A stretch of 64,000 nt of DNA from an uncultured Nitrospiraceae bacterium (GTDB taxonomy: Bacteria; Nitrospirota; Nitrospiria; Nitrospirales; Nitrospiraceae): the NCBI GenBank assembly GCA_963706325.1, contig CAVPLT010000007.1, positions 640,001 to 704,000 of the forward strand. The letters run 5' to 3'. Of the stretch, positions 1,301 through 46,579 are shown in pieces. Each line of letters opens with the position of its first letter. The first letter of the stretch is position 1. The notes under the pieces were generated by a model. That model had not been told where the DNA came from. It saw only the letters and a program-made list of their open reading frames with translations, and did no database searches. The position numbers and the translations under genes were made by a program.

Positions 1301-1344
1301 TCGAATCTTACAAACAACCTGGGAGAACAGGTGTGAGGCTAACA

Positions 1345-3123: not shown

Positions 3124-3153
3124 GCGATAGACGAACCAAGTCTACGATTGTAG

Positions 3154-3189
3154 CGAGGGGGTGGGGGAACTCACCCCCTCGTTCTTTTT
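3154..3189 (+). terminator. Rho-independent terminator
   Basis: 10-bp stem CGAGGGGGTG/CACCCCCTCG followed by TTCTTTTT, 30 nt after the stop at 3123. Confidence 0.8.
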
Positions 3190-3217
3190 GCACCAATTGA
3201 GCAGACAGCTAAGAACG

Positions 3218-16716: not shown

Positions 16717-16794
16717 TTGCAAAAATCGCCAAGGGGTTTGTATAATCGGCGGTCGTTTTCGATGATCGTAAGAGAAGGACCGGGAGCAAGTCAA
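16717..16794. promoter_or_regulatory. Overlapping divergent sigma70-like promoters
   Basis: + strand TTGCAA(16717)-18-TATAAT(16741). - strand TTGACT(16794-16789)-18-TACGAT(16770-16765). Confidence 0.5.
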
Positions 16795-16849: not shown

Positions 16850-17881
16850 ATGGCAACCGGAGTAGAAGTATCCAAGCCGTCGATGGAGATCCGTTTTCAG
16901 CCGGCCTTACTGCAGGAGGTGATCGACTCCTTCATTGAAAAGACGGAACGGGAAGGGGATCCTACCTATTATAAAGAGTTTCATGAGCTGGCCGATCCGA
17001 TCTATGAGAAATTCACGCTCGATGATCGCGAAGCAGAGTTCAAGAAGCTGTATCAGTATTTGTTCGGAATCTGGGGTTTTTCCGATATTATCCGCGACGC
17101 CTTCAACGAGTTTCCTGAATTGAAGCAGCGTGTTGGCGTAGTGCTGGTCAAAGGTGTACTGAAGGAAGATCAGGAAGGGGTCGATGTGCTGCGGAAGTGG
17201 GGCTCCGTCGAACACGACCTGGCCAAGCAATTCGAGGAAAAGGGCTTGAAGGGAGTCGGCATCAAGTTGATTCCAAGACGGTTCTATGATCCGGCCCTCA
17301 CGCGCTACTGTCGGCATGAGCTCATGCACATCCATGACATGCTTGATCCCACCTTTGGATACGACCCTGATACCAGGGTCGGGCAAAACCCCGGTGAAGA
17401 AACCCTGATTCTGCATCGTTATCGGATTCTTTGGAATATCAGCGTCGACAGTCGGCTGATCGTGATGGGCAAAGAGCCCATGTTGTCGAAAGAGGATCGG
17501 TTCAAAGAATTTCGGTCATGGTACAGAAAAATCCCGCCCGCCCAATTGAAATCGGTGTTTGAAGGTCTCTGGCAGACCAGCTATTTCACGCACTCAGAAT
17601 TGGTTGAAATGGCGACAGACACGCTGCGCATTTTGGATCGCGCGGTGGACGTCGAGGGAGGAGAAGTCCCGGAGACCAACACAAAAGTCATGCTCATGCC
17701 GGGATTTCCTTGTCCATTGTGCCGCTTCCCCACCTATTCATGGGTGGAAGACATGGAAACCAAGCTGGAAGGATACATCCTGGACTTCATCCGCGAGAAC
17801 CATCCGGGGTGGGATGTCGAGTATGGCGCCTGCGATCGTTGCGTGGAAGTGTACAAGTTGCGCGCTGATGGTGTGATGTAG
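16850..17881 (+). CDS. Uncharacterised protein with zincin-like HExxH motif and C-terminal CxxC...CxxC
   Basis: RHELMHIHD, WNISVDSRL, CPLCRFP and CDRC. 343 aa, no signal peptide. Confidence 0.8.
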   Translation: MATGVEVSKPSMEIRFQPALLQEVIDSFIEKTEREGDPTYYKEFHELADPIYEKFTLDDREAEFKKLYQYLFGIWGFSDIIRDAFNEFPELKQRVGVVLVKGVLKEDQEGVDVLRKWGSVEHDLAKQFEEKGLKGVGIKLIPRRFYDPALTRYCRHELMHIHDMLDPTFGYDPDTRVGQNPGEETLILHRYRILWNISVDSRLIVMGKEPMLSKEDRFKEFRSWYRKIPPAQLKSVFEGLWQTSYFTHSELVEMATDTLRILDRAVDVEGGEVPETNTKVMLMPGFPCPLCRFPTYSWVEDMETKLEGYILDFIRENHPGWDVEYGACDRCVEVYKLRADGVM

Positions 17882-17893
17882 TCGGAGACTATT

Positions 17894-18496
17894 GTGGCCG
17901 GTGATCCGAAATACGGGCGTCGAGATTTTTTAAAAGACTCCGTGGTCTCGGTGGCTAAGGCGGCTCGTGAGTTTGCCGCCTATAAAGATGCCCCCCGTGA
18001 GCTGCCTGCGGCTCCGTTACGGACGGATTGGCTACGTCCTCCGGGTGCGGTCGATGAAGTAACGTTCCTGGAGCAGTGCACGCGTTGCAGCGACTGCATG
18101 AAAGCCTGCCCACCAGGGGCGATCGTGAGCGATGTAGCGAACGGCAGTCCGATAATTTTCTCGGATCAAGTAGCGTGCGAATTGTGTGACGATTTTCCTT
18201 GTATCGCAGCCTGTGCAACGGAGGCTCTCCTCCCAGTCACAGATTGTCTCGACGTGCGGATGGGTGTGGCGACCGTATCGCACCGCGTGTGCACGGCGGG
18301 TCAAGGTTGTCATGCCTGCGTGTCGAAGTGCCCCGTCGAGGCGCTGTCGATGGATTTCAACGCCTTGCATTTGGTGGTGGCTCAAGACCGTTGTGTCGGA
18401 TGTGGAATGTGTGAACAGATTTGCAAGACCGTGAATGATCGTATTGCGATCAAGGTGGTACCGGCGCGAAACCTTGCTGCCGGCGCTCTTGGGTAG
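17894..18496 (+). CDS. NapF/NapG/MauM-type polyferredoxin (four [4Fe-4S] motifs)
   Basis: GRRDFLK, LRPPGA, CTRCSDCMKAC, CELCDDFPCIAAC, CTAGQGCHACVSKC and CVGCGMCEQIC. Confidence 0.9.
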   Translation: MAGDPKYGRRDFLKDSVVSVAKAAREFAAYKDAPRELPAAPLRTDWLRPPGAVDEVTFLEQCTRCSDCMKACPPGAIVSDVANGSPIIFSDQVACELCDDFPCIAACATEALLPVTDCLDVRMGVATVSHRVCTAGQGCHACVSKCPVEALSMDFNALHLVVAQDRCVGCGMCEQICKTVNDRIAIKVVPARNLAAGALG

Positions 18497-18589
18497 TCGT
18501 CCGTCAAACCTGTGTGAAAGATGAAGAACGTCAAGGAAATGATTGAAACGTCGGCACGTATGGCGATGAAAATGGAAGAGAGTTCATGC

Positions 18590-18618
18590 TTGACATCCCT
18601 CCTTCCTTTACCTATCAT
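18590..18618 (+). promoter_or_regulatory. sigma70 promoter for the chaperone-nxrC transcript
   Basis: TTGACA(18590)-17 bp-TATCAT(18613). Confidence 0.7.
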
Positions 18619-18701
18619 ACGCCTCCTGTGCCGCAGGACTCAGATGTTGCGTAGTATGCGTAGAAAATGCGCAACATGTTGAGGTGAGGAGCAATAAACG
18701 T

Positions 18702-19679
18702 ATGACATCGAAACAAGTCGTGCAGCCCACCTCCGCCTCCTCTACCGCAGTCGCTCCCCCGCAGACTGTCGCTATCAAAGATTCGCCAGCCGTTGAACGA
18801 GCTCTTAATCGCAGCAAAATATATCTTCTATTCTCATGGAGCCTCTTGTATCCGGAGGATGAAGAGTTTCTTGATTACCTCCAGTGCGGTGAATTCGTTG
18901 AGGATGGACGGGCAGCGCTGGAAGGCCTGCGCGTGGCGCTAGACGGCATGGGTGGTGACCGCGCAGTTCAGAAAATTGCGTTGATGAAGAAACAGTTCGA
19001 CCACATCGAGAAGCTGGTCGCCGCCGAATGTGTCAACTGGCAGATCGGTGACCTCCAGACTGAGCACCGTCGGGTGTTTACCAATGTCATTACACTCGAT
19101 TGTCCGCCGTATGAAACTCTTTTCGGAAATGATCACGTCTTCGCGCAATCCCATGTCATGGGCGACATTGCCGGTTTTTACAAGGCATTCGGGGTCGAGC
19201 TGTCCAAGGATGTTCACGAACGTCTGGACCACCTGAGCGTCGAACTCGAGTTCATGCATTTTTTGACCTATAAGGAATCATATTCGCGTTGTCATGATGG
19301 CATGGATAAGACCGACATCGTGGTCGATGCGCAAAAGAAATTTATCAGAAATCATATCGGCCGTTGGGTGCCTTTGTTCTGTCGGATGTTGGCGAAGAAG
19401 TCTGATGACGGGTTGTTCAAATTGATCGCCGATTGTATGTCGGAGTGGATGGATTTTGAGGTCGCCTTTCTCGGAGTCCCTGTGCAGCCGTACTCCGAGA
19501 CGGATTACAGACCAGCTACCTTCAATGCTCCGGAAGGTCAAACCTACGAGTGTGGGGCGCAGGACAAAGGAAATGAGCTCAGTATGTTACTGAGCGAGGT
19601 TGGGGCCGAGTCCTTCATGGACCATAAGGCGAAAGAGAAGGACGGTGAAAAGGATGAAGGCCCTGTCGGAACTGCGTAG
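18702..19679 (+). CDS. TorD/DmsD-family molybdoenzyme maturation chaperone
   Basis: CPPYET, IAGFYKAFG, ERLDHLSVELEFM and FIRNHIGRWVP motifs. RBS GAGGAG before ATG 18702. Confidence 0.88.
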   Translation: MTSKQVVQPTSASSTAVAPPQTVAIKDSPAVERALNRSKIYLLFSWSLLYPEDEEFLDYLQCGEFVEDGRAALEGLRVALDGMGGDRAVQKIALMKKQFDHIEKLVAAECVNWQIGDLQTEHRRVFTNVITLDCPPYETLFGNDHVFAQSHVMGDIAGFYKAFGVELSKDVHERLDHLSVELEFMHFLTYKESYSRCHDGMDKTDIVVDAQKKFIRNHIGRWVPLFCRMLAKKSDDGLFKLIADCMSEWMDFEVAFLGVPVQPYSETDYRPATFNAPEGQTYECGAQDKGNELSMLLSEVGAESFMDHKAKEKDGEKDEGPVGTA

Positions 19680-19778
19680 GGGTTCTTGGTTTGCGGGCAG
19701 TGTGGGATTCAGGTTTCGGTAGATGTTATAAGTTTTCCGTTCTTTTTCTTATTAATCTTTCAGAGGAGGGCATACGCA

Positions 19779-20732
19779 ATGAGACTGGTGCAGACACGCA
19801 ACAAAAGTTTGGTGTTTGGCATTCTGTTCTCTGCGCTGATCGTTGGCATTATGTTGACGATTGGGCAGGTGCCTCTCGCGGTTAGCCAACCGGTGACCAT
19901 TCCCGCGAAGGCGATCAAGGGGGCAATCCCAATGGATGGTGCGAACCCCATCTGGGAAGGAGTTCCGGGTGTCATCATTCCACTGAGCGGTCAGACTATC
20001 ACGACCCCGATGCATCCGAACATTTCGGTGAAGTCGGTGTTTGTGAAGGCGATCACCAATGGGAAGGACTTAGGTGTGCGCCTCGATTGGAGCGATCAAA
20101 CCAAGAATGACACGGCAATCGGACCGCAGGATTTTCGTGACCAGGTGGCGATCATGTTCCCGGTCAACACTGCGGGAGCTCCTCCATTCCAATGCATGGG
20201 TCAGTCTGGTGGGACCGTCAATATCTGGCGTTGGAACGCCGAGTGGCAGAAGGATCTTGGTAAGGACAGTGCCGGGATGTGGGACGTTGATGACCAATAC
20301 CCTGGCATTTTCTGGGACTATTATTTCGAAGAGCCGGCCGGTGGAGTCACCTATCCGGATCGTATCGGCCGAAGCCTTGGCCCATTCAATTCCGGTATTT
20401 GGTCCGGTAACATCATGTCCGACCCGACCCTGCGCGTCAGCTCCGTCGAGGATCTGAATGCCAATGGGTTCAGCACCCTAACCACCCAGGCCCATCAAGA
20501 TGTGATCGGCAATGGTGTGTGGGAGCCGGCAGGGTCACTTAAGGGCGGTGGATACTCAGGTCCGACGTGGCGTGTGGTTGTGAAGCGTTCGCTGGAAACC
20601 GGCGATGCAAACGACACGCAGTTCAAGGGTGGAGCTGCCGTGCCTATCGCCTTTGCGGTATGGGATGGTAACAACATCGAACGGAACGGCATGAAGGCGC
20701 TGTCCACCTGGTTTACGCTGAAGTTGCCGTAA
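19779..20732 (+). CDS. nxrC: Nitrite oxidoreductase gamma-subunit candidate (EB_dh heme b family)
   Basis: N-terminal signal/TM, FRDQVAIMFP, PFQCMGQ (Met ligand), VNIWRWNA and FAVWDG..ERNGMKALSTW (Lys ligand). RBS GAGGAGG. Follows the TorD-like chaperone. Confidence 0.8.
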   Translation: MRLVQTRNKSLVFGILFSALIVGIMLTIGQVPLAVSQPVTIPAKAIKGAIPMDGANPIWEGVPGVIIPLSGQTITTPMHPNISVKSVFVKAITNGKDLGVRLDWSDQTKNDTAIGPQDFRDQVAIMFPVNTAGAPPFQCMGQSGGTVNIWRWNAEWQKDLGKDSAGMWDVDDQYPGIFWDYYFEEPAGGVTYPDRIGRSLGPFNSGIWSGNIMSDPTLRVSSVEDLNANGFSTLTTQAHQDVIGNGVWEPAGSLKGGGYSGPTWRVVVKRSLETGDANDTQFKGGAAVPIAFAVWDGNNIERNGMKALSTWFTLKLP

Positions 20733-20797
20733 ACCAAGTAGCCCAGAGAGTATTATCCGCTCAGAAGTCGAGTAGAAGGATAGTTCAAGAATCGTAA

Positions 20798-20847
20798 AAG
20801 AAGGCCTCGAGTCGCTGCCAGCAGGGCAAAAGACTCGGGGCCTTCTT
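20798..20847 (+). terminator. Long hairpin (terminator or 3' stabiliser) after nxrC candidate
   Basis: AAGAAGGCCTCGAGTC ... GACTCGGGGCCTTCTT, a 16-bp stem with one G-U pair. Confidence 0.65.
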
Positions 20848-21005
20848 GCATGTAGAGCAGCAATTTCAATCGGCTAGCTGAGAAGAGTTCCTTGCCTCGC
20901 AGTAAGCGTGAAGGGTTGCATTTGAGCTGGAGCGGAGTGTATAAACCGATACGGTGCGATGTTACCGAAAACACTGATTTTCCTGCTTAATATAAAGATT
21001 GTCTT

Positions 21006-22787
21006 ATGAAAGTTTCACTCCTGTTTCCGCCTACATGGCATCCGTCTCAACCCTATCTGAGCCTGCCATCCCTCACAGGGTTCCTTACGCAGGCGGGGGT
21101 GAAAAGTGTCTCCCAACGCGATCTTGGCATCGAGTTGTTGGACAAGGTTCTGACTCAATCATTTGCTCATAATCTCTATCAGCAACTGGTAGCGAAACAG
21201 CGCGGCCTCGAGCGAGAACGCACGGGCGAGACCGGCCCAGGGAGCGCCGAACAACTCGCACGGATCATCGAGTCGCTCGATCGGTTTCCGTATTTGTTTG
21301 AGCGAATCGAGTTGGCAAAAGAAACGTTACGCGGAGAAGGGTTCTACGATATCGAAGCCTACCGCAACAGTCTTTTTCTGATCGATAAATGGCTTGAAGT
21401 GCTCTCCTCGCTCTATTTCCCGACACGAATGACGGTTGTCGACAATCAGTTCGGCGACTATTCCATCTACTCGTCGAAAGATTTGGTTAAGGCGATCCGG
21501 GATGAAACGCAGAATCCCTATGTCAGTTTATTTCGTGAACATGTGTTACCGTCTATTCTGACGGATCGTCCGGATTTGGTCGGCGTGTCCATCACAGCGA
21601 CCTCGCAAATTATTCCTGGTCTCACGCTCTGCCGATTAATCAAAGAACATGCGCCGGAGCTGCACGTGACGGTCGGCGGTAGCATTTTCACCAGATTGGT
21701 GGATAACCTCCGCCGCTGTCCATGGCTGTTCGACCTTGTTGACGACTTCGTAGTATTCGAAGGAGAAACGGCGCTTCTTGAACTTGTGAATCAGATGGAC
21801 GGTAGGCGGGATTTCAGTAAGGTCCCCAATCTAATTTATCGCCAGAACGGCAAAATTACGGTCAATCAACCGTTTTACTCTGAAAATATCAACCAGCTCA
21901 CGGCGCCGAATTACGACGGGTTTCCGCTCGACCTTTATTTGTCGCCGGAGCCCGTTCTTCCGGTACAATTTTCACGCGGGTGTTATTACAAGGACTGCGC
22001 GTTCTGTGCCCTGACGCTGGATCATCAAAACTTTCGTCAGCGCGACCCTGGCAAAACGGTGGATGACCTTGCCTGGTTGAAGGAGCGCTATGGGGCGCAG
22101 TCATTTTTCTTCACCGACGAATGTTTTGCCCTGTCTCCCACCAAACGCCTTTGCCAACAAATGATTGACCGGCAGTTGAACGTCAAATGGACCTGTGAGT
22201 TGCGTTTTGAGAAAAACCTCACGCGGGAATTGCTTGGACAGATGCGGGACGCCGGGTGTTTGAAAATTGTGTTCGGTTTGGAGTCGTTTAATCAACGGGT
22301 CATGGATTTCATGAAAAAGGGCATCAAGCAGGAGTCCGTGCGCCGAATCGCCGAGGATTGCGTGGATCTGGGCATCGCCGTGCACTGTTATGTGATCGTC
22401 GGATTTCCTACGGAGAAGGAGGAGGAGGCGCTTGATACGATGAACTTCGTCGTGGAAAACACGAAGCTCAACGGGTCATACGGGTTCTCTTGTCAGCCCT
22501 GTCTGTTCGATCTGGAAAAAGAAGCGCCGATCATGAGTGATCCTGGCAGTTACGGCATCCGACGAATTATGCGTCCGGCAGCGGAAGATTTAAGTTTGGG
22601 GTTCTTTTATGAAGTGCAAGAGGGCATGACTCCTGCCCAAGCCGAACAACTTTACCAGCACGTCTACGAAAAAATCAGTGAAGTCGTGTGTGAATTGCCG
22701 TTTAATTATTCGATGGCTGACGGGTTGCTATATATCGCCCGGGCCAAGTCGCAAGCATTACAGATCCCACAACCGACCGGTTCCTAA
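21006..22787 (+). CDS. Cobalamin-binding-domain radical SAM protein (class B methyltransferase-like)
   Basis: N-terminal FPP.W.P..PYL, B12-binding region LVGVSIT..Q...TVGG...FEGETAL, cluster motif RGCYYKDCAFC, then FFFTDE, FGLES and IVGFPTE. Confidence 0.9.
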   Translation: MKVSLLFPPTWHPSQPYLSLPSLTGFLTQAGVKSVSQRDLGIELLDKVLTQSFAHNLYQQLVAKQRGLERERTGETGPGSAEQLARIIESLDRFPYLFERIELAKETLRGEGFYDIEAYRNSLFLIDKWLEVLSSLYFPTRMTVVDNQFGDYSIYSSKDLVKAIRDETQNPYVSLFREHVLPSILTDRPDLVGVSITATSQIIPGLTLCRLIKEHAPELHVTVGGSIFTRLVDNLRRCPWLFDLVDDFVVFEGETALLELVNQMDGRRDFSKVPNLIYRQNGKITVNQPFYSENINQLTAPNYDGFPLDLYLSPEPVLPVQFSRGCYYKDCAFCALTLDHQNFRQRDPGKTVDDLAWLKERYGAQSFFFTDECFALSPTKRLCQQMIDRQLNVKWTCELRFEKNLTRELLGQMRDAGCLKIVFGLESFNQRVMDFMKKGIKQESVRRIAEDCVDLGIAVHCYVIVGFPTEKEEEALDTMNFVVENTKLNGSYGFSCQPCLFDLEKEAPIMSDPGSYGIRRIMRPAAEDLSLGFFYEVQEGMTPAQAEQLYQHVYEKISEVVCELPFNYSMADGLLYIARAKSQALQIPQPTGS

Positions 22788-22875
22788 TCTGCCTGCCTTA
22801 GCCAAGTCCTGAGGCTGCGAGTATCGACCGGTGTTTTTCGCGGGACGATCACTAATGTTGCACAGGAGGCTGGAG

Positions 22876-23997
22876 ATGTCTGTTATAGCCGCTACAGCCG
22901 AACGATCCACTGGACGAGTGGAAGATCAGGGCCTACTGTTCGAATACACCATCAAGCTGGTGTTAATCGTCGGTTTCTTCGAACTCGTGCTCTATCGGCT
23001 GGTTTCCCGTCTCGGCATGCATATCAGCAAGATCGCCGCGGAGCACGAGTGGGTCGGTACGACCTTTCAATTGCTCACATCTGTCGGCTTTGCCCTGCTG
23101 AATGTCGTCGCAATCTTTGTCTTTCTGGCGCTCGTTGTCTTGCTTCTGAATAGGCTGCGCGCACGTGGGATTTCGGGGGTCCACGCCGTCACGATTCCCA
23201 GCGTCGGACTCCTCTTGATTCTAACGGTCGCATTCCTGATCGTGCCGCCGGGTATGGTGGGTTCCATCGCATACAATGTCACTACGGTCATTGCTCTTAC
23301 CGCCTTGATGATCGAATACCTGTCACAGCACCAGGAGTGGTCCAAGCGGATCATGGGTGCGACCTACTATTTCGGCATTTCCGGGTGGCTGTACTACCAG
23401 ATTCTTTCCACCACTTACGGATGGATGGGGGTGATTGCGGCTCCCCCGTTGGTTTATGAAGCCAATCGTCTTGGCGAAGCGCTGATGGTCCTCGCAAGCA
23501 TCCTCGTGTTTTGGGCCTATGGCCGCGGGGTGTCGTTTCGCACTCGAAACCGACAGCAGCGCCGACGCGCTATCTGGTTCGGGGCCGTCTCTGGAGTAGT
23601 ATTTCTCGCCCTCTTCTTCATGGACTATTTCCTCGGCCTCTACAATCCGGTATTGGCCCATTCCATTCGGAAAGCCGGCGAGGGTATCAGCTGGATCTTT
23701 CAGATGGGCATGGGGTATACCTTTTACTTGCCCTTTGCGTTTTATGTTGCGGGGCTGTTGTGTTGGTCCTATACCGTGATCAGGCTTGTGACTATGGGAC
23801 GCCTGGCGGGATATGGTCTCGCATTAATGTTTATTGCCGGCTACGCGTTGCTGTTTTCAAGTTTGAGTCTAATGGTCATACTCGGGGTCATGTTGCTGAC
23901 ACTCGATCGGCCCACGGGCGTCGCGATGGAGCAGGCGGCCGTGATTAAGCCCCCGCTTGTGGACTCGCAGAATTCTCTCGTTAGCGGACACATTTAA
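22876..23997 (+). CDS. Polytopic integral membrane protein (~10 TM), function unknown
   Basis: Successive hydrophobic segments. RBS AGGAGG upstream of ATG 22876. Confidence 0.8.
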   Translation: MSVIAATAERSTGRVEDQGLLFEYTIKLVLIVGFFELVLYRLVSRLGMHISKIAAEHEWVGTTFQLLTSVGFALLNVVAIFVFLALVVLLLNRLRARGISGVHAVTIPSVGLLLILTVAFLIVPPGMVGSIAYNVTTVIALTALMIEYLSQHQEWSKRIMGATYYFGISGWLYYQILSTTYGWMGVIAAPPLVYEANRLGEALMVLASILVFWAYGRGVSFRTRNRQQRRRAIWFGAVSGVVFLALFFMDYFLGLYNPVLAHSIRKAGEGISWIFQMGMGYTFYLPFAFYVAGLLCWSYTVIRLVTMGRLAGYGLALMFIAGYALLFSSLSLMVILGVMLLTLDRPTGVAMEQAAVIKPPLVDSQNSLVSGHI

Positions 23998-24032
23998 TCT
24001 TTCCCGTCACCCAGAGAGTAGGACATGTGGCT

Positions 24033-24846
24033 ATGGATGAACAGACACAGATGACCGGCGCAGAGCAAGGCAGCGCGGCGGTAGATCCAGAAGAGCAGGC
24101 CTTGAATCCCGATGAAGAAATCACGGAGATTGAAAAATTGCTCAGCACTGAGCCGGACGATTTTCAGGCTCGATGCCGGCTGGGGGAATTGTATTTCAGC
24201 AAAGGTCGGCTCGACGACGCGTTGACCGAAGTGAAGAAATCGATTGAGATGGCCGAGGGTCTCAGGACGGAAATGAATCGGTCTCTCGCGATGTATTATT
24301 CGAACCTCGGGACCATCTACGCCACGAAAGGTATGATCGATGAGGCCGAGGCAGAATTCAAGCGCGCACTCGATGTGCATGCCTATGATGTTTTGGCCCT
24401 CTTCAATCTTGGGCCGCGTGCAGGCGGACAAGAGAAAATACATGGAGTCGAAGAACTATTACGAGCGACTCGTGGAGATTACGCCAGACGATCCGATGGC
24501 ATGGTACAATCTTGCGGGCGTCTATGTGGAATTGGACAATCCGCAAGTGTCCGACTACAACACCATGGATATGGCGATTCAGTGTTACCTACGGGTCCTC
24601 GAACTCGATCCGAAGCATTTGGAAGCCAGTTTCAAGCTGATGGAGATCGCCCTCAATCACAAAAAGACCGATCTGGCGATCAAGGTGATGGAGAGTGCCG
24701 TGGAGCACAGTCCTGATGAGCCGCTCGCCTACTACAATTTGATCAGTGTCTACGATAAGTGCAAAATGTTTGAACAGGCCGAGCAGGCTCGCCAGCGCCT
24801 GAAGGAACGATTCGCGAAGAAGGCCAAAGAGGGAGCCGCATCCTAA
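24033..24846 (+). pseudogene. TPR-repeat protein split by a +1 frameshift at ~24411-24414 (pseudogene or sequencing error)
   Basis: ORF 24027-24716 has TPR motifs up to LALFNLG, then nonsense. ORF 24340-24846 continues RVQADKRKYMESKNYYERLVEITPDDPMAWYNLA. Deleting one base in CTTGGGCCGC fuses them. Confidence 0.82.
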
Positions 24847-24870
24847 ACATGTGAGCAAAGGAGACACACC

Positions 24871-25281
24871 ATGTTTGGCAGCCTTGGTTTTACAGAGTTG
24901 ATCCTGATCCTGTTCATCGTACTGATTATTTTTGGTGCGGGGAAATTGCCTCAGCTGGGCGAAGGAATCGGCAAAGCGATCAAGGGATTCAAGAAATCCG
25001 TCCACGAGGCGGATATGATCGAAGCCGAGGCCCAGGCACAAGCCCAGCAGGCCGAGCCAGTTCAAGCACAGGCCATTCAGGCGCAGCCTGCCGTACCCAT
25101 GCCGACGCCACAGGCGGAACAACCGGTTGCGGCCGTCAACTCCACCCGCGCACGCGTAAATTTTTCGACACAACGGGCTCAGCACAGAACGGATCTAGTC
25201 AGTTATGGAAACAGATGTTCAGTTGGCGATCGGATACATCGAGACCTTCGCCGGAAACGGCAAGGCACGGAGCACAGGTGA
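24871..25281 (+). CDS. tatA: Twin-arginine translocase TatA/TatE subunit (3' end uncertain)
   Basis: [42 protein letters not shown] followed by a Q/A/P-rich tail. Confidence 0.92.
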
Positions 25282-26458
25282 CGGCAAACGTGCCGTGAAG
25301 GCAGGCATCCCTCTTCCGCATCATGTTGCATTGGACCGTGAGGAACGATGGTTGTACTTTGCAGAGTCCGGGTCTGACCGCGTGCGGCGCGTGAATCTGG
25401 CGGAAGGCACCCTCCATAATTTCGCCGGAATCGGTGAGACCTGCTACAGCGGAGACGAAGGGCTGTGCGGTGAAGCCGGATTGTATCTGCCGCTTGATGT
25501 GGCCTTTGACTCGCACAATGACCTGTACATTTGTGATTCAGGCAGCAACCGAATCCGCAAGATCGATCGCGAGACCGGGATCATCTCGACCGTGGTGGGA
25601 ACCGGCGAACATGGATTCAACGGTGACGGTGCAGCGCTGGAAGTGAATTTGACGTGGCCGGCGGCGATCGCGTTCGACGCTGACGATGTGATGTACATCG
25701 CCGATACGCAAGCGCACCGCATTCGCCGGTATGATTCACGAACCGGCCGGGTGGAGACCATCGCGGGAAGCTGGACTGCGGAAGACGAAGCTCGCGAGCA
25801 GCCGCTGGTGGCGCGGAACCTGGTCGTCCTTTCAGGCGACGCGATCGGGATTGATTTCAGTGACGACAATGGATGGCTCATGCCAGTCTGCTCGGACGGT
25901 CTCAGTCTGTCCATGTATCTCGACGATGGTCATCCGGCGATGGAGGCGCGACTGTACGATATTGTGGGCATTGCGGTCGACAAAGCTGGGGATGTCCACA
26001 TTGTGGACAAGGGCAGCAATCGTGTGCGGAAGATTGATGGCAAAACAGGGTTGATCTCCACACTTGCCGGTGTGTGCCGGTACGGATATGACGGAGACGG
26101 CAAGCTGGCGGCGAAGTCGATGCTGCACGCGCCTGAAGCCATCGTGTTCGATCAGCACAATCATGCCTATATTTCCGATACAGGCAATCATCGAGTCCGT
26201 AAGGTTGACGCAGACACCGGGCTCATCAGCACCGTGGCTGGCAACGGTGACAGCGGCTACGATGATAAGAATATGGGCGGCTGTGGCGCTGCTCGGTTTG
26301 TTGCCAAGGATGCCGCAGGTGGACTGAAGCATGGAGATGGCCTGCTGGCCGTAGAGGCGGTCGTGAATTCTCCAGTCGGGCTGACGCTCGATACGCAAGG
26401 GTATCTCTATATCTGCGAGCGGGGGGAAAACAAGATCCGTCGCGCCAAGTTATGGTAG
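25205..26458 (+). CDS. NHL-repeat beta-propeller protein with loop insertions
   Basis: Repeated P..(V/I)A(F/V)D...LYI.D.G.NR(I/V)RK(I/V)D..TG.IST(V/L)AG.G..G..GDG units. Confidence 0.88.
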
Positions 26459-26535
26459 TGGCGTTCGACGGATTCATCGTTCCCAGTTGTGGAACGTATG
26501 CATGAGTTCTCACGGCTAGGGCATCGCGCCGGGGC

Positions 26536-27378
26536 ATGAGGCGAATGACGTCGGTCCACACATCCCGTACCAAGCTGCTGTATTTTCTCTCCGGTCTGCT
26601 TCTTCTCGCCCTCATTCTGGGCGGCCTTGGTATTCCCATCGTCAGTTCGGAAGGCATGATTATTCGTGCACAGGCGGTCACGGGAGACATTCCCGTCACG
26701 CCTGAAGATCCTCTGTGGCAGAAAATCTCCCCCATGACACTGCCGTTGAGCGGGCAAATCATTACCAGGCCCGTGTGGCCCGAGCCGACGGCGCATGCGT
26801 TGGCGGTCCGTGCGGTTCACAACGGCACAGACATTGCTTTTCTGCTTGAGTGGCAAGACAACACGAAAAACGATCGACTCACGCCCGGTACCTTTCGCGA
26901 TGGGGTGGCGCTGGGATTGCCGCTCGGCGATGCTCCGGCATTTTTCTGCATGGGTCAATTAGATCACTACATCAATATTTGGCACTGGAAGGCCGATTGG
27001 CAGAGTGATATCGATCGCCGGGCCGCCAGGACGACGGAAAAAGACAAAGCGGTCAGTGGTGAGCCGCGGCGCTTCGAGGTCATTCCTCGGCGAGCATCGT
27101 CGGTGGAGGATTTGATCGGCGGCGGGTTCAGTACCCTGACCACGAAAGAGAAGCAGGGGCGTGTGCAGGGCAAGGCCACATGGAAAGACGGCATGTGGAG
27201 GGTGGTGATGCGACGGCCACTATCCAGCGAAGAACAAGAAAATGAAGCGAAATTAATTCCGGGACGTATCCAGGCGGTTTCCTTTGCCGTGTGGAATGGC
27301 GAGAACAAGGAGCGCAATGGCCAAAAAGCCATCGCCCCTTGGTTTCAACTCTCGCTTGACCCTGTCACAAAAACGTAG
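26536..27378 (+). CDS. Second EB_dh-family heme b subunit (NxrC candidate)
   Basis: N-terminal TM/signal, FRDGVALGLP, AFFCMGQ, INIWHWKADWQ, SSVEDL...GFSTLT and FAVWNG..ERNGQKA. Paralog of 19779-20732. Confidence 0.82.
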   Translation: MRRMTSVHTSRTKLLYFLSGLLLLALILGGLGIPIVSSEGMIIRAQAVTGDIPVTPEDPLWQKISPMTLPLSGQIITRPVWPEPTAHALAVRAVHNGTDIAFLLEWQDNTKNDRLTPGTFRDGVALGLPLGDAPAFFCMGQLDHYINIWHWKADWQSDIDRRAARTTEKDKAVSGEPRRFEVIPRRASSVEDLIGGGFSTLTTKEKQGRVQGKATWKDGMWRVVMRRPLSSEEQENEAKLIPGRIQAVSFAVWNGENKERNGQKAIAPWFQLSLDPVTKT

Positions 27379-27437
27379 TTGTTGCTGGTAGGATGACAGA
27401 GCAACCGGTTAAAGTCTGGTTTGGTCGCGCGAAAGAG

Positions 27438-27935
27438 GTGAATACGTTGGAGGCGAGAGCCCAGAGGATCCGGTCTCTTCTGATAAAAGCCCTTTCTCTT
27501 GGAAGGGCTTTTTCTGTATGTGTGGCTTTGCTCACCGCAAATGGGTGGAGCAGCGCGGCCAACGCGGACACCGGCACGACCACCAACGGCGAGATGACGG
27601 CAGAGGAAGCCATCCAACTCGGAGAAGATTTCGGGATTGCGGTCGGCGAGGTCGACGAAGAGATTCGAAAAGAACTGAAGTTGCAACGGGCGGAAGGTGT
27701 CGCCGTGTTTGAAGTGATCGGCAATTCCCGCGCAGACTATGCAGGCATCAAGGTGCGGTCAGTCATCAAGGAAATTGATAAAAAGGAAGTGCGTTCCCTC
27801 ATCGATTTCGGGAAAGCCGTCAAGGCTTCGCTCAAAGAATGTAATTTCACGGTTGGAACCTACGAGCCGGCAGATCCTGGCGATCCGGTCGGGTGGGGTG
27901 TAAACTTCCATTTTGTGGGCTGCAAGCGAGATTAG
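27438..27935 (+). CDS. Small exported PDZ-like domain protein (start uncertain)
   Basis: FGIAVGEVDEEIRKELKL...GVAVFEVIGNSRADYAGIK...VIKEID resembles the HtrA PDZ2 domain. AxA-type cleavage site SAANA. Confidence 0.7.
   Translation: MNTLEARAQRIRSLLIKALSLGRAFSVCVALLTANGWSSAANADTGTTTNGEMTAEEAIQLGEDFGIAVGEVDEEIRKELKLQRAEGVAVFEVIGNSRADYAGIKVRSVIKEIDKKEVRSLIDFGKAVKASLKECNFTVGTYEPADPGDPVGWGVNFHFVGCKRD
27485..27514 (+). terminator. Terminator-like hairpin downstream of the second nxrC candidate
   Basis: AAAAGCCCTT/AAGGGCTTTT stem followed by a T-run. Overlaps the 5' part of the next ORF. Confidence 0.5.
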
Positions 27936-27952
27936 ATCAGGATAGACCGAGC

Positions 27953-29260
27953 GTGAACGACACAGGACGACTGATACAAAAACTCGCGATGGGTGGGCTC
28001 CTGCTGATCATGGGGGTGCTGAACGTTACCTTCCATGAGCGGGCAATTGCCCAGAAGACCGACGGCCAGGCTCCGCCTGATTGGGTTGCCGAGATTGAAA
28101 AGATTTTTATTCGGTCCGAAGACTGTAAGCAGTGCCACGATCGACATTACGAGGAGTGGAAGGGGATACGGGAACAGACTCCGGACCTCAAATCTTTCGG
28201 CCGGGTCGACGCGGCCTTGCTGCATGGAACCGCCTTTGAATCGCCGGTGTTTCGCACTGTCTTAGGTTTGTGGATGCAGACGAATCCGACTGTGCAAGAG
28301 CGACAGCGTTGCCTGTCGTGCCACGCACCAGCGGTGACAGTGTTTCCGCAACATGTGGAAAAAATTGTCGCGCAGGTTTTGTCCGGCAAGCCCCAGGTGG
28401 AGGGAATCGGTTGCGCCTCATGTCACCTCATCAATGCAGTAGAAACCACGCAGCAGCCCCCGCCGACCTACAAAGTGCAGCCCGGGGAGATGCTCTACGG
28501 ACCCTATGCGGATCCGGAAGAGAACCTCGTGCATCCGGCGACACAATCTTCGCTTTTCCGTGGCGCGAATTTTTGCACGTCCTGTCATTTCGACAAAGTG
28601 AAGGACGTCACGCAGAAAGATTTGCCCGGAGAAATCCTGCAAGGTACGATTTGCCAGGATTGCCATATGGAACCCTCTACCGGAAGTTCGACCTCGAAGC
28701 GTGGTGCGATGACTCGGGCGATCGGCCGGCATTGGTTCCGTGGGGTGGTCATTCCAGGCACCTTGTTGAAAAATCGCAATCTGCAGGCAGAATGGATGCC
28801 TCGTATCGAAGTGGAGGCAACGAAGTCTGGGACAGGTGTAGAAGGTACCGTGCTGGTGAAGATCGGGAGTTTGCCTCATAGTTTTCCAGACGGTGACCCG
28901 GTCTTGAAGCAGTTCCTGCTATCGATCACGACCAAGGATGCGCAGGGCAATGTGCTTGGGGAGGAGACGAAGCGGTTTGGCCTACCATACGAAAAGATCT
29001 TGCGTGGTCCGATTCCCGATCCTTTCATCAAGGGTGGGAATACACGTCGCGTGCCGTTTTCGCAGGCCCTGAAGGCCGGGGGAGAGCCGGCGAATATCGA
29101 GGTTGTGCTCAGCTATGCGTTGATTCCCGAGCCGGAGGCGGAACTCAAAGCCAAGTATCTGGCGACACTGGCGAACGAGCAGGAGCGCGCGACCGCGAAG
29201 AAGGTAATCGAAGAATACATTCAGCCTCGTTTGCTGACTTACCGGGTTAAGTCACTCTAA
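27953..29260 (+). CDS. Periplasmic pentaheme c-type cytochrome (c554-like N-terminus)
   Basis: Five CxxCH motifs (CKQCH, CLSCH, CASCH, CTSCH, CQDCH) and a signal peptide. Confidence 0.88.
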   Translation: MNDTGRLIQKLAMGGLLLIMGVLNVTFHERAIAQKTDGQAPPDWVAEIEKIFIRSEDCKQCHDRHYEEWKGIREQTPDLKSFGRVDAALLHGTAFESPVFRTVLGLWMQTNPTVQERQRCLSCHAPAVTVFPQHVEKIVAQVLSGKPQVEGIGCASCHLINAVETTQQPPPTYKVQPGEMLYGPYADPEENLVHPATQSSLFRGANFCTSCHFDKVKDVTQKDLPGEILQGTICQDCHMEPSTGSSTSKRGAMTRAIGRHWFRGVVIPGTLLKNRNLQAEWMPRIEVEATKSGTGVEGTVLVKIGSLPHSFPDGDPVLKQFLLSITTKDAQGNVLGEETKRFGLPYEKILRGPIPDPFIKGGNTRRVPFSQALKAGGEPANIEVVLSYALIPEPEAELKAKYLATLANEQERATAKKVIEEYIQPRLLTYRVKSL

Positions 29261-29316
29261 GATGCCGTGCTGGCTGTGACGTGCAGAGACCAAGGGATGC
29301 ACGATGTGCGGAGGAT

Positions 29317-30564
29317 ATGCCAACGGTGAAAAATCGACGAAGATTCCTGCAGGGGATCGTAATCAGCGCACTGTTCTTGGTTCTGGCCCTGACAAGCTAT
29401 GGCGTGCAGCAGGGGCTCGCGCAGGATGCGAAAGCTCAGGCCACCATCGAGAAAGCCTTTCCCAGTTCCAGCAAGTGTAAGCGTTGCCATGAGAGGGTGT
29501 TCGAAGAGTGGGAAACGTCGCCGCTCTCGCGTTCGATCCATACGCCGACCTTCCGTGCCGCGCTCGACGCCTACCTGACTTCCTCTGCCGGCAAAGATAA
29601 AGCCATGTGTTTTCGCTGCCATGCGCCGCATGTGCGCGAGTTTGCAGACCAGGCTCAATTGTTCGTGACTCAGGCGCAGTCCGGCGAGCCGTCGCTGGAC
29701 GGCGTAGCTTGCGCGCAATGTCATCTCATCAAGCAAGTAGACCGGACGAAACAGCCGCCAGAACCGAAGTACGACCTCGGGAGTAAGACCATGTATGGGC
29801 CCTACAAAGATTTTGCACAGAACCTTGCGCACCAATCTATGGAGTTGGGCCTTTTTCACAAATCGGACCTCTGTTTGAATTGCCATCAGGTAGTGCCGGC
29901 TGCGGCGGACCTCGGGAAAAGTAACGATCTTTTGGGTAACTGGGACCAGAGTAAATCCGTGAAGTCCGGGAAAGAATGCCAGACCTGTCATATGCCTGAA
30001 CAGGTCGGCGAATCGGCCAACGGAGAGGCCAAGCGTAAGGTGGCTAACCATTCGTTTCCTGGTCGGATCGGCCAGCTTAGGCAGGAAGCTGCGAAATTAG
30101 AAGTCACGACCAAGGTCGAAGGTGAAAAGACTACCGTGACCGTGGCGGTGCAGAGCTTGGTGCCGCACAATCTGCCGACGACTCATCCGGGTTGGGCTAG
30201 CGTCGTGTTAGAGCTGGGGATCAAAGGCAAGAACCTCAAGACCGTCTTCAGCGACAGACGTGTCTACGGTCGAACCTATGCCGATGCTAAGGGCCAGAAG
30301 ACCGTATTCGACTTTGAGGCCGTGAAGGTTCTTGAAGAAACGGTTCTAAAGCCGGAAGAGAAACGGGTGGAAACCTTTACCTTTCCCACACCCAAAGACA
30401 CCAAGACCTTCGACGTCGAAGCCATCCTCAGCTATGCCCCAGTGACCGGACCAGCCCCTTTCCTGCAGCGCATTGAAGCTGAGTCCTCCAAAGGCGCGCA
30501 GGATCCCGTGTTTCAATCCATCCCTATCGTGAAGCTCAGCGAGAATATACCAGTCGTCAAGTAA
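29317..30564 (+). CDS. Periplasmic pentaheme c-type cytochrome, paralog of the upstream gene
   Basis: Five CxxCH motifs (CKRCH, CFRCH, CAQCH, CLNCH, CQTCH). RBS GGAGG before ATG 29317. Confidence 0.88.
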   Translation: MPTVKNRRRFLQGIVISALFLVLALTSYGVQQGLAQDAKAQATIEKAFPSSSKCKRCHERVFEEWETSPLSRSIHTPTFRAALDAYLTSSAGKDKAMCFRCHAPHVREFADQAQLFVTQAQSGEPSLDGVACAQCHLIKQVDRTKQPPEPKYDLGSKTMYGPYKDFAQNLAHQSMELGLFHKSDLCLNCHQVVPAAADLGKSNDLLGNWDQSKSVKSGKECQTCHMPEQVGESANGEAKRKVANHSFPGRIGQLRQEAAKLEVTTKVEGEKTTVTVAVQSLVPHNLPTTHPGWASVVLELGIKGKNLKTVFSDRRVYGRTYADAKGQKTVFDFEAVKVLEETVLKPEEKRVETFTFPTPKDTKTFDVEAILSYAPVTGPAPFLQRIEAESSKGAQDPVFQSIPIVKLSENIPVVK

Positions 30565-41557: not shown

Positions 41558-42847
41558 TTACAGCCAGTTCACGCGTTCGGCCGGTCGAATATAGATCGGC
41601 TCTTCGACCTGGATGCGCGCCACTTCCTTGCCCGACTTGTTGAAGCCCAACACGGTATCGTTGTACATATCGAACCGCTTCCCGTGGATCTGGGTTTCAA
41701 ACACTTTCGGACCCGGAATGACGTCGTACCGGAAGATGATCTGCTGGCTCGCTCTCCAGAGCTGGAGGACGGCCAACAGTTCCCGACTCGGCACAAGATA
41801 CTTCTCGATGGCGTTGTCCACGCCCGGGCCGAACATCTGCCGCGCATACCCACGCGGGCTGTGTCGCGGCGGAATGTAGAAGCCGTTGGGCTCGGTGCCC
41901 CACTGTGGATACAGGGGCAAGGCCACCTGCTCTACGCGAATCGCGTAGTACAGGGGATGCCAGCGGTCTTCGGCCCACAGGCCGTCCTCGCCGATCCGCA
42001 TCAACGACTGCATGCGGATCTTGCCCACGCAGGCCGCCATGCAGCGCGTTTCCATCGGCTCGCCGCCCGTCAGCGGATCCTTGCCTTCGATCCGCGGATA
42101 ACAGGCGATACACTTCTCCGACACCCGGGTCGTGCCCCGGTACATCGGCTTCTTATAGGGACACTGCTCCACGCACTTCTTGTACCCGCGACATCGGTTC
42201 TGGTCGATCAACACAATGCCGTCTTCCGGCCGCTTGTAGATCGCCTTCCGCGGGCAGGCCGCGAGGCAGCCCGGATAGGTGCAGTGGTTGCAGATCCGCT
42301 GCAGATAGAAGAAATACGTCTCGTGTTCCGGCAAGCTTGAGCCGGAGAGCCGCCACGGTTCGTCCCGCGTAAAGCCCGACTTGTCGATGTTCTCGACAAT
42401 GGCCCGCATCGACGTCGCCGTGTCTTCATAAATGTTCACGAACCGCCATTCCTGGTCGGTCGGAATGTACCCGATCGCCGCCTGGCCCACTTTGGCCCCG
42501 GCGTCGAAAATGGTCATCCCTTCGAACACCCCGTACGGCGCATGGTGCTTGCGGCCCACGCGCACGTTCCACACCTGCCCGCCCGGGTTCACTTGCTCGA
42601 CGAGCTGCGTGATCTTCACGTCGTAGAACTGCGGATACCCGCCGTAGGGCTTGGTCTCCACGTTGTTCCACCACATGTACTCCTGCCCCTTCGAAAAGAG
42701 CCAGGTCGACTTGTCGGCCATCGAACAGGTCTGACAGGCCAAACAGCGATTGATGTTGAACACAAAGGCAAACTGCCACTTCGGATGCCGCTCCTCATAC
42801 GGATACAGCATCTTCCGTCCCAGTTGCCAGTTATAGACTTCTGGCAT
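41558..42847 (-). CDS. nxrB: Nitrite oxidoreductase beta subunit
   Basis: MPEVYNWQLGR start. Fe-S motifs CLACQTCSMAD, CNHCTYPGCLAACP, CRGYKKCVEQCP and CIACYP...CMAAC. 429 aa. Confidence 0.96.
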   Translation of the reverse strand: MPEVYNWQLGRKMLYPYEERHPKWQFAFVFNINRCLACQTCSMADKSTWLFSKGQEYMWWNNVETKPYGGYPQFYDVKITQLVEQVNPGGQVWNVRVGRKHHAPYGVFEGMTIFDAGAKVGQAAIGYIPTDQEWRFVNIYEDTATSMRAIVENIDKSGFTRDEPWRLSGSSLPEHETYFFYLQRICNHCTYPGCLAACPRKAIYKRPEDGIVLIDQNRCRGYKKCVEQCPYKKPMYRGTTRVSEKCIACYPRIEGKDPLTGGEPMETRCMAACVGKIRMQSLMRIGEDGLWAEDRWHPLYYAIRVEQVALPLYPQWGTEPNGFYIPPRHSPRGYARQMFGPGVDNAIEKYLVPSRELLAVLQLWRASQQIIFRYDVIPGPKVFETQIHGKRFDMYNDTVLGFNKSGKEVARIQVEEPIYIRPAERVNWL

Positions 42848-45900: not shown

Positions 45901-46401
45901 GAAGCGGCTGTCAAATTTATACTTGCGCTTCACATCAGGCGTCAGCTCAGGGGAGCCGGCATCCATCCACTCTTTCCACCCCTTCCGCATCAACGGCCCC
46001 TTTAAGCGATAGGGACCGTACACGCGGCGATGGAAAGTGAATCCCTTCAAGCACATGCGTGGGTTATGCGCGAACGTGCCGCGGTTGCCGTACAGATCTT
46101 CATAGGTTTGGTGATCATAGTTCTGCTCGACGCGCATGACGACGCCGTTCCGGACGAAGGCACGAATACGACAGCCGTGGGTATCGTTCGGTGAGCAGCA
46201 CCAGGTAAAGGATGAGTCGTACCGATACTGGTCGTGATACACACGCTCCCAGGACCGATCCGGGTACTCACCCAGCGGGTTCCCAACCTCGATGACCGGC
46301 TGCAGCGCGGTCAACGCGAGGACTTTGTCCGCCACAGCCACGGCCGCGACGGTTCCCGCCGAGATTTTGAGAAACTGTCTCCGTGAAACGGAAACCTGCA
46401 T
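42958..46401 (-). CDS. nxrA: Nitrite oxidoreductase alpha subunit (periplasmic, Tat-exported Mo-bisPGD enzyme)
   Basis: SRRQFLK Tat motif, FS0 motif CSPNDTHGC...PRMCLKG (Asp replaces one Cys), YTWHGDQ Mo-ligand region and TPKTRHRVHSQW. RBS AAGGAGGT before ATG 46401. Confidence 0.96.
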   Translation of the reverse strand: MQVSVSRRQFLKISAGTVAAVAVADKVLALTALQPVIEVGNPLGEYPDRSWERVYHDQYRYDSSFTWCCSPNDTHGCRIRAFVRNGVVMRVEQNYDHQTYEDLYGNRGTFAHNPRMCLKGFTFHRRVYGPYRLKGPLMRKGWKEWMDAGSPELTPDVKRKYKFDSRFLDDLNRVSWDTAFTYVAKGAVLIATRYSGEAGARRLREQGYAPEMIEMMKGAGVRCFKHRAGMPVLGIVGKMMNTRFNGGCLPLLDSWIRKVDPDKAQGGKYYSNYTWHGDQDPSHPFWNGTQNCDVDLSDMRFSKLNTSWGKNFVENKMPEAHWKLESIERGARIVVITPEYNPTAYRADYWIPLRPETDGANFLGACKIIFDENLQDIDYIKEFTDLPLLVRTDTLQYLDPRDVVADYKFPDFSKSYSGRIQSLKPEQIERLGGMMVWDLAKGKAVPLHREQVGFHFKESGIDPALTGTFRVKLVNGREIDVMSIYQMYQVHLQDYDLDTTHQITRAPKDLLVRWARDSGTIKPAAMHNGEGVCHYFHMTEMGRAAALVMTITGNIGKFGTGCHTWSGNYKAGIWNAVPWSGAGLAVHTGEDPFNLTLDPNAHGKEIKTKSYYYGEEVGYWNHGDTALIVNTPKYGRKVFTGKTHMPSPSKVRWVTNVNILNNAKHHYDMVKNVDPNIEMIVTQDIEMTSDVNHADVAFACNSWMEFTYPEMTGTVSNPWIQIWKGGIRPLYDTRNDADTFAGVAAKLAEMTGDARFRGVFHFVYMNRVDVYPQRMLDASATCYGYSADVMLKSEKGWMVMCRTYPRHPLWEETNESKPQWTRSGRIETYRIEPEAIEYGENFIVHREGPECTPYLPNAIFSNNPFIRPDDYGIPITAQHHDDKHVRNIKLPWQEIKRHPNPLWEKGYQFYCVTPKTRHRVHSQWSVNDWVQIYESNFGDPYRMDKRTPGVGEHQLHINPQAAKDRGINDGDYVFVDGNPVDRPYRGWKPSDPFYKVSRLMIRAKYNPAYPYHVTMAKHAPYVSTAKSVKGHETRPDGRAIAVDTGYQSNFRYGAQQSFTRSWLMPMHQTDSLPGKHTIAWKFKWGYAIDHHGINTTPKECLIRITKAEDGGIGARGPWEPVRTGFTPGQENEFMIKWLKGEHIKIKV

Positions 46402-46579
46402 AATAGCTACCTCCTTGTGAGGCACATGATTCCCTCATGCACCTGTTCGTACAACTTCACTGCAGTTCCTAAAATGCGATTCTGGTTGATATACCCCCTT
46501 TCCCTGTATCGAATTGGAAACATTTGCCCCTCTCAATTCGAAATTTGTGAACGGACATTCGTTCACTCGCGTGTTGTAG

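Follow-up and report, generated by a model that had tools for sequence, protein, structure and literature searches.

Nitrite oxidoreductase (NXR) is the source of nearly all biological nitrate. In Nitrospira moscoviensis, nxrC_1, nxrC_2 and a TorD-type chaperone gene were discussed by Mundinger et al. 2019, the nxrC_2 product being named a probable soluble gamma subunit and the chaperone a probable factor in NXR assembly; a radical S-adenosylmethionine (SAM) enzyme and the HExxH, membrane, TPR and NHL proteins of the same locus (NITMOv2_3617-3627) are given as proteins of unknown function in the supplement and are undiscussed in the excerpts of the text used here (PMC6606698; literature is cited from such excerpts throughout). 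NxrC, a chaperone and a putative zinc finger protein also occur in the nxr cluster of Kuenenia (kustd1699-1713) and in the set of NXR-associated genes common to Kuenenia, Nitrospira and Nitrospina (Lucker 2013, PMC3578206; PMC8387239), and no radical SAM enzyme is listed for that set in the excerpts. Here we describe positions 16850-27378 of a 64,000-nucleotide window from an uncultured Nitrospiraceae bacterium (GCA_963706325.1, contig CAVPLT010000007.1, positions 640,001 to 704,000). This region is a conserved Nitrospirales locus for an NXR gamma subunit, a TorD-type chaperone and co-inherited helper genes, matching NITMOv2_3617-3627 gene for gene in the same order and coordinates with 59-89% identity. 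The locus itself is thus largely known, and what is new is that its cobalamin-dependent radical SAM enzyme (rSAM) belongs to a clade common to three phyla. We tentatively propose that this enzyme methylates a carbon of an NXR subunit.

The best match to the window rSAM among 1.84 billion representatives is from Nitrospina watsonii (46% identity); a cluster with a Planctomycetota member matches at 51% over a fragment, and other full-length single-domain matches reach at most 39%. A search with the planctomycete protein gave 1688 matches, of which the best 120 were used, and most of these are unnamed; the named orthologues among the matches listed come from Kuenenia, Brocadia, Jettenia, Loosdrechtia, other Brocadiales, Brocadiia or Planctomycetota, Nitrospinota and Nitrospirota. 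Identity among the Nitrospira, Nitrospina and anammox groups is 45-51%, against at most 43% to outsiders. These three groups form one clade (17 of 37 sequences; Shimodaira-Hasegawa-like approximate likelihood ratio test 99.3, ultrafast bootstrap 100), which FastTree recovers with a support of 1.0 (43 of 114 sequences), the outgroups being best-scoring 520-800-aa representatives, a subset of 150. The NXRs of Nitrospira, Nitrospina and anammox bacteria are likewise closest mutual relatives (Chicano 2021, PMC8387239), and homologues of the HExxH protein have the same reach (39% identity in Kuenenia, 35% in Nitrospinae). The profiling of the rSAM against lineages with periplasmic NXR that the initial annotation proposed returns a clade spanning all three.

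The rSAM was called a B12-binding radical SAM enzyme in that annotation, and both domains are present. The cobalamin-binding domain scores 32.1 bits with PF02310 (cut-off 32.1), in keeping with class B, and the radical SAM barrel 62 bits with PF04055, with C326, C331, C334 and E426 invariant. The motifs GxSxT (193-197), GG (224-225), GE (253-254) and CX4CX2C (326-334) are followed by DE (371-372), GFPTE (466-470) and a clade signature, NYSxxDG (567-573); G193, S195, G224, G225 and E254 are invariant in 113 sequences, and the cobalamin and SAM motifs are intact as described in PMC9204698. The predicted model (mean predicted local distance difference test 95, predicted TM-score 0.93) matches TsrM, OxsB, AprD4, TokK, MgmA and CysS similarly well, with 14-17% identity. 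Foldseek ranks OxsB (PDB 5UL2-5UL4) and TsrM (6WTE) highest (E 1e-14 to 1e-17), and both share the GG, GE and Cys-X3-4-Cys-X2-Cys motifs (PMC9204698), but with a TM-score of about 0.5 they are no closer than TokK, CysS, AprD4 or MgmA, and their substrates are small molecules. A PDB sequence search returned only AprD4 (1e-7). Two regions, the stretch behind the Cys loop and the C-terminal cap, hold conserved residues specific to the clade, including L336, D339, H340, P498, N567, D572 and G573 (54 clade against 59 outgroup rows), and one shared substrate is thereby suggested.

The best family profile is TIGR03975, for C-methyltransferases of peptides of ribosomal origin that are modified after translation (RiPPs), at 155.5 bits, below its cut-off of 281.85; the orthologues score 135-150. 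ApyD (NF050148) is third at 129 bits (cut-off 750), and the P-methyltransferases PhpK/BcpD (TIGR04479) reach 134 bits (cut-off 600), with no phosphonate neighbours among the annotated genes. MgmA (TIGR04014) gives 57.9 of 360 bits, HpnJ 98 of 578, HpnR 49 of 650, TIGR04072 100 of 360 and MiaB/RimO 23 of 251, so that the enzyme is placed by their cut-offs in none of the lipid, hopanoid and tRNA methylase families, a placement that the initial annotation had named as fatal to its proposal. Nine of the 18 best-scoring 700-770-aa relatives carry a C-terminal match to PqqD, the RiPP recognition element (RRE), at E<0.05, and three of these are above the cut-off. Together with the TIGR03975 score, these relatives would suit an enzyme for the maturation of a short ribosomal peptide whose gene lies elsewhere in the genome. 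Such a role is very improbable: unlike the TIGR03975 enzymes and ApyD, the window, Nitrospina and Kuenenia rSAM proteins have no PqqD/RRE match, and no conserved small precursor open reading frame (ORF) was found in 63 gaps between nxrC_2 and the rSAM gene, where 116 small ORFs gave a largest similarity group of six loci. The absence of a nearby RiPP precursor, as first annotated, accordingly holds for that gap. The rSAM is also 72-97% conserved and behaves as a core gene across Nitrospirales.

The genes of the locus, those that continue the same conserved run and the nxrAB genes of the window are as follows.

16850..17881, + strand: HExxH protein with a Cys4 zinc finger (332 aa from the likely start at 16883; fold predicted as zincin-like; NITMOv2_3627)
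17894..18496, + strand: NapG/NapF-like polyferredoxin (RRDFLK N-terminus, two CxxCxxCxxxC motifs; NITMOv2_3626)
18684..19679, + strand: TorD/NarJ-type chaperone of type II dimethyl sulfoxide (DMSO)-reductase enzymes (NITMOv2_3625)
19779..20732, + strand: nxrC_2, haem b gamma subunit of the EB_dh family (317 aa, signal peptide; NITMOv2_3624)
21006..22787, + strand: cobalamin-dependent radical SAM enzyme, rSAM (593 aa; NITMOv2_3622)
22831..23997, + strand: polytopic membrane protein, function unassigned (7-9 hydrophobic segments; NITMOv2_3621)
24027..24846, + strand: TPR protein, split into ORFs 24027-24716 and 24340-24846 (NITMOv2_3620)
24871..25159, + strand: tatA, about 95 aa in relatives, with an ORF that runs to 25281 here (NITMOv2_3619)
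25205..26458, + strand: NHL-repeat beta-propeller without signal peptide (NITMOv2_3618)
26536..27378, + strand: nxrC_1, second EB_dh haem b protein (NITMOv2_3617)
27393..27935, + strand: PDZ-domain protein of the same conserved run (66/66 testable loci)
27893..29260, + strand: multihaem cytochrome c of the same run (61/61 testable loci)
29281..30564, + strand: second multihaem cytochrome c of the same run (60/60 testable loci)
41558..42847, - strand: nxrB, candidate client outside the cluster (profile scan)
42958..46425, - strand: nxrA, candidate client outside the cluster (relative of PDB 7B04 chain B)

The first ten genes are co-oriented within 16850-27378, and the ORF list and profile scans agree with the families first assigned to them. 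The two EB_dh proteins score 104.7 and 106.5 bits with PF09459 (cut-off 33.3), TatA 62 bits with TIGR01411 (above cut-off), and the chaperone passes PF02613 and reaches 83 bits with TIGR03482, below its cut-off. The NHL protein has no hydrophobic segment, as expected of a cytoplasmic propeller, and the membrane protein, first described with about ten transmembrane segments, is polytopic with 7-9 segments by hydropathy, the number depending on the threshold. As annotated, tatA is not flanked by tatBC; both tatC genes of the genome are away from the cluster, the nearer about 66 kb off. The window nxrA and nxrB genes lie on the opposite strand 14-19 kb downstream, and the conserved run continues beyond 27378 with the PDZ protein and the two cytochromes.

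Of 447 genome loci matching the rSAM, the 80 best were used to count synteny, and each gene was scored only in loci long enough for it. Downstream of the rSAM gene the order is invariant (membrane protein 79/79, TPR 73/73, tatA 72/72, NHL 70/70, nxrC_1 69/69), and upstream it is nearly so (nxrC_2 58/63, chaperone 54/60, ferredoxin 53/59, HExxH 52/58). The window belongs to a Nitrospira genome: every one of the 80 loci carries a Nitrospira, Nitrospiraceae, Nitrospirales or Nitrospirota label apart from two, 'uncultured bacterium' and 'Nitrosospira isolate NOB2', in which the gene order is unchanged. The order is also kept in two further families at 71-74% identity. In five of the 80 loci nxrAB or nxrB lies directly upstream of the rSAM gene and co-oriented with it: four of the six upstream exceptions (L068, L075, L083 and L084) have nxrAB inserted after nxrC_2 and just before the rSAM gene, in L083 with a histidine kinase and a sigma-54 regulator, and L074 ends in nxrB at that same place. 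The other two exceptions (L016, L065) are rearranged upstream in other ways. The contiguous nxrC-nxrAB-rSAM layout is unusual for Nitrospira, where nxrC has been reported apart from nxrAB. The region was first annotated as a dedicated NXR assembly line; within Nitrospirales its linkage to NXR stands, by near-invariant synteny with nxrC and the chaperone and by the adjoining nxrAB genes, but not every gene of it is an assembly factor, nxrC_2 encoding a structural subunit.

Distribution was assessed in one draw of 220 Nitrospirota genomes, comprising two Nitrospirales families, f1 (41 genomes) and f2 (17), and 162 others. An rSAM orthologue is present in 41/41 and 17/17 genomes of f1 and f2, respectively, and orthologue-level matches number zero among the 162. 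Orthologues independent of NXR-like enzymes, another outcome that the initial annotation had named as refuting, were thus not found in the sampled Nitrospirota outside Nitrospirales. No match at 1e-60 was found in 160 of the 162, and two f21 genomes have matches at 1e-64, weaker than the paralogues. NxrA at 79% identity or more is found in 29/41, 17/17 and 0/162 genomes of f1, f2 and the others, respectively; of the 12 f1 genomes without it five were retested, and three have NxrB. Twelve of the 162 hold type II DMSO reductases of 39-42% identity without an rSAM orthologue, and ten such distant loci have a chaperone and mostly a gamma subunit, with no rSAM, HExxH, ferredoxin, membrane, NHL or tatA gene. 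In family f4 of the same order, NxrA, the rSAM orthologue and the membrane gene are each found in 0/4 genomes, and the chaperone in 0/5 (f4 plus one other genome), by a search without a positive control. The HExxH protein is in 58/58 genomes of f1 and f2, with two finger-only matches among the 162, and the membrane protein in 114/120 genomes of Nitrospirales. Distant NHL matches (36-47% over about 110 aa) occur in 4/4 f4 genomes, and the NHL protein may therefore not track NXR. Since related genomes are not independent, the distribution amounts to one lineage-level pattern.

From these results we tentatively favor, as the best single guess, C-methylation by the rSAM of a residue in an NXR subunit that folds in the cytoplasm and leaves it through Tat (NxrA or NxrB), the methyl group being added prior to export. 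A protein C-methylase serving the NXR system is suggested because the enzyme is soluble, leans towards peptide-modifying families, lacks a precursor and an RRE, is kept in all sampled NXR-bearing Nitrospirales genomes and in two further phyla with the same NXR, and has an analogue in MgmA. NxrA and NxrB are the likelier clients because they fold in the cytoplasm before Tat (twin-arginine translocation) export, and NxrC is less likely because it is predicted to be Sec-exported (PMC6606698). SAM would methylate cob(I)alamin, and a second SAM would yield a 5'-deoxyadenosyl radical that takes a hydrogen from an unactivated carbon of the client, to which methylcobalamin would donate its methyl group, as in MgmA acting on methyl-coenzyme M reductase (MCR). 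MgmA and Mmp10 (MCR C-methylases, PDB 9CCB) share this B12-radical SAM chemistry, and the MgmA gene is clustered with the client operon in only some genera, as is the window rSAM (PMC11796369); unlike in MgmA, to which structural identity is 16% (9CCB), the client here is only a candidate. The chaperone, ferredoxin and extra TatA would serve cofactor loading and export, and the TPR, NHL, membrane and HExxH proteins are putative helpers.

Observations of several kinds weigh against this proposal, beginning with the context of the rSAM gene outside Nitrospirales. We took the best 80 of 363 metagenome matches as Nitrospina-like loci, named so solely by 70-82% identity to the N. watsonii protein. 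In all 80, no linked chaperone, nxrC, nxrAB, ferredoxin, HExxH, membrane, NHL or tatA gene was found, in flanks that are partly short (50 loci have more than 1.5 kb upstream and 52 more than 1.5 kb downstream; for 4.5 kb the numbers are 23 and 35, respectively), and TPR matches in three of them are weak and distant. In Kuenenia the rSAM orthologue is KsCSTR_14470 and NXR is KsCSTR_07960-08000, tags about 650 genes apart that are partly literature-derived (PMC7709395 and PMC12053348, which also give the nitrite transporter focA as KsCSTR_14610 = KSMBR1_1070), and the orthologue is outside the nxr cluster of PMC3578206. By tag distance it is probably KSMBR1_1082/kuste3043, which is annotated miaB_2, lies beside argG and has 59-71 reads per kilobase per million (RPKM; PMC7438415). 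The initial idea of a dedicated assembly line is thus not supported beyond Nitrospirales, in both the Nitrospina-like loci and Kuenenia.

In 71/71 testable Nitrospina-like loci a cupin-like gene (106 aa) is directly upstream of the rSAM gene instead; the family name is our own reading of the sequence, with no NCBIfam match at 1e-12. A representative is at L132:1442-1762, and a homologue (54%) lies elsewhere in the genome of the window (G000:C6:125761-126072). With the missing link to nxr, the cupin speaks for another role, in which the rSAM, working with the cupin, would produce or modify a small molecule or lipid common to these nitrite-exposed chemolithotrophs and its placement beside nxrC reflects co-regulation or a frozen neighbourhood. 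The membrane-protein gene that follows the rSAM gene in 79/79 Nitrospirales loci fits this role, as do the scores of the PhpK, BzaD, ladderane-type and HpnJ profiles and the small-molecule substrates of the closest solved folds. We consider it rather unlikely all the same, as no other biosynthetic genes travel with the rSAM, the HpnJ, HpnR and TIGR04072 scores are low, and the cupin, present in 56/58 Nitrospirales genomes, also occurs in 14/162 other Nitrospirota without an rSAM orthologue. This last count rules out the cupin as an obligate partner specific to nitrite-oxidizing bacteria.

The proposed NXR client is weakened further by how the clade is distributed. The same three lineages share other transferred genes, including a bd-like oxidase, an alternative NxrC and cytochromes (PMC3578206), and for that reason co-distribution does not single out NXR. 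The rSAM could instead modify one of these components, the bd-like oxidase/alternative NxrC complex or a cytochrome: the set is kept in Kuenenia, Nitrospira and Nitrospina (PMC3578206, PMC6606698), an alternative nxrC lies 18 kb upstream in the window (at 1264-3838, together with mobA), and the peptide-methylase profile signal suits any protein client. We regard this as unlikely, the immediate Nitrospirales neighbours of the rSAM gene being nxrC, the chaperone and tatA, with nxrAB adjoining in 5/80 loci. In addition, one clade member is labelled Pacebacteria (a 4.7-kb contig) and is nested among Nitrospinota-like sequences, and two of the five retested rSAM-bearing f1 genomes (10 and 20 contigs) gave no NxrB match, perhaps because multicopy genes stayed unassembled. 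Behind the pattern stand about three lineages and a single family without both genes, not hundreds of independent cases.

The enzyme and its presumed client supply the remaining difficulties. All profile scores are far below their cut-offs, with PhpK nearly as high as TIGR03975 and, for the Kuenenia protein, higher (145 against 140 bits), and an RRE is absent from the clade. The CX4CX2C motif with a small polar lower-face residue recalls the non-methylating OxsB (PMC9204698). A predicted complex of the rSAM (1-578) with NxrB (1-420) scored 0.00 in two runs, without control pairs, and speaks for neither side. The 3.0-Å structure of Kuenenia NXR has no modified residue reported in the excerpts (PMC8387239), and both of its pyranopterins are in an unusual open state. 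That state, the OxsB-like motifs and mobA in the same region would be consistent with modification of an NXR cofactor, either the pterin of its molybdenum bis-pyranopterin guanine dinucleotide or haem, by methylation or by OxsB-like chemistry. This is improbable given that the structure was modelled with standard molybdopterin guanine dinucleotide and haem b (PMC8387239) and that the RRE-bearing relatives point to polypeptides. No literature link between a radical SAM enzyme or methylation and NXR was found in a search whose scope excluded subscription papers and bioRxiv supplements; NXR is not mentioned in PMC5012046, and the excerpts of PMC10467342 and PMC3655542 tie no radical SAM gene to NXR.

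Published N. moscoviensis expression (PMC6606698) is highest for nxrC_2 (18780 RPKM, rank 2), followed by the chaperone (2417), NHL (719), tatA (617), TPR (539), membrane (414), rSAM (376, rank 614), nxrC_1 (352), ferredoxin (328) and HExxH (327) genes, all above the median. This very uneven expression suggests several transcription units, which also counts against a single NXR maturation unit. Expression of the rSAM 50-fold below nxrC_2 fits a catalytic maturase and proves nothing. RNA contigs cannot rank the genes or show a single transcript.

We find it less likely than not that periplasmic-type NXR bears a hitherto undescribed radical-installed C-methylation conserved in three phyla and made by a clade that travelled with the nitrite-oxidation machinery. 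If it does, this would be, to our knowledge, the first such modification on a molybdoenzyme of the DMSO-reductase family and a bacterial counterpart of the MCR methylases, and the methyl group could help bias NXR towards nitrite oxidation. Heterologous NXR production has not been achieved in anammox work (PMC8387239), and the rSAM clade is a short-listed missing maturation factor for the enzyme. Should the client be something other than NXR, the clade still points to a chemistry common to nitrite oxidizers and anammox bacteria.

The HExxH protein, a 343-aa ORF as listed, holds HELMH, CPLC and CDRC, motifs with little or no variation across 28 aligned homologues; the first His and the Glu of HExxH are nearly invariant, and the second His and D152 are invariant. 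It has no Pfam or NCBIfam match. Its model weakly resembles many zincins (Z up to 4.6; best overall Z 4.9), with no Foldseek match at E<=0.001, and in the ESM Atlas look-alikes fall in Verrucomicrobiota, Methylomirabilota and Nitrospinota clusters, below the recognition mark; for the membrane protein, the only cluster at 0.9 or above is a Nitrospirota one, also below that mark. The HExxH protein is a candidate maturation or quality-control peptidase. With its 39% homologue in Kuenenia, it may also correspond to the putative zinc finger protein, possibly kustd1701, in the NXR gene set that the three lineages share.

Two genes of the locus are disrupted in this assembly. A single additional base near 24411 splits the TPR gene and shows up as an insertion at 24410-24417 in 65 or more of 85 alignments; another, near 25139, lets the tatA ORF read through. 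Both are probably assembly errors, since contigs of related strains lack the two bases, N. moscoviensis has a single intact TPR gene (813 bp) and the second nxrA copy of the assembly (G000:C7:712448) is likewise frameshifted; the read contigs come from related strains and so do not prove it.

Several other features of these genomes were recorded. Loci L186-L195 are type II DMSO-reductase operons (37-42% to NxrA) from several other Nitrospirota families, with a chaperone and mostly an EB_dh gamma subunit, and the f4 genomes (G021, G024, G027 and G030; 1.9-2.1 Mb) are possibly a non-nitrite-oxidizing branch of Nitrospirales. A tandem pair of B12-radical SAM paralogues (G000:C2:194460-198004; L091:10458-14230) is 33-35% identical to the window enzyme and 48% mutually, is confined at 1e-60, within the phylum draw, to the families that bear NXR, and in G023 has an nxrA-like gene about 9 kb away (L101); the tree rules out the pair as sister of the three-phylum clade. 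Genome G243 has the rSAM, HExxH and membrane genes twice, on the different contigs C10 and C14, from either a duplicated cluster or assembly redundancy. A promoter scan gave 7 sites against 9.0 +/- 2.7 by chance, so the matches at 18590-18618 (11/12) and 16717-16746 (10/12) are leads only. Upstream, a WD40 gene (15543-16655, - strand) adjoins the cluster in 49/58 testable loci, and a PAS histidine kinase/sigma-54 response regulator pair (10896-15541, + strand) adjoins it in most loci; both are possible regulators of the locus.

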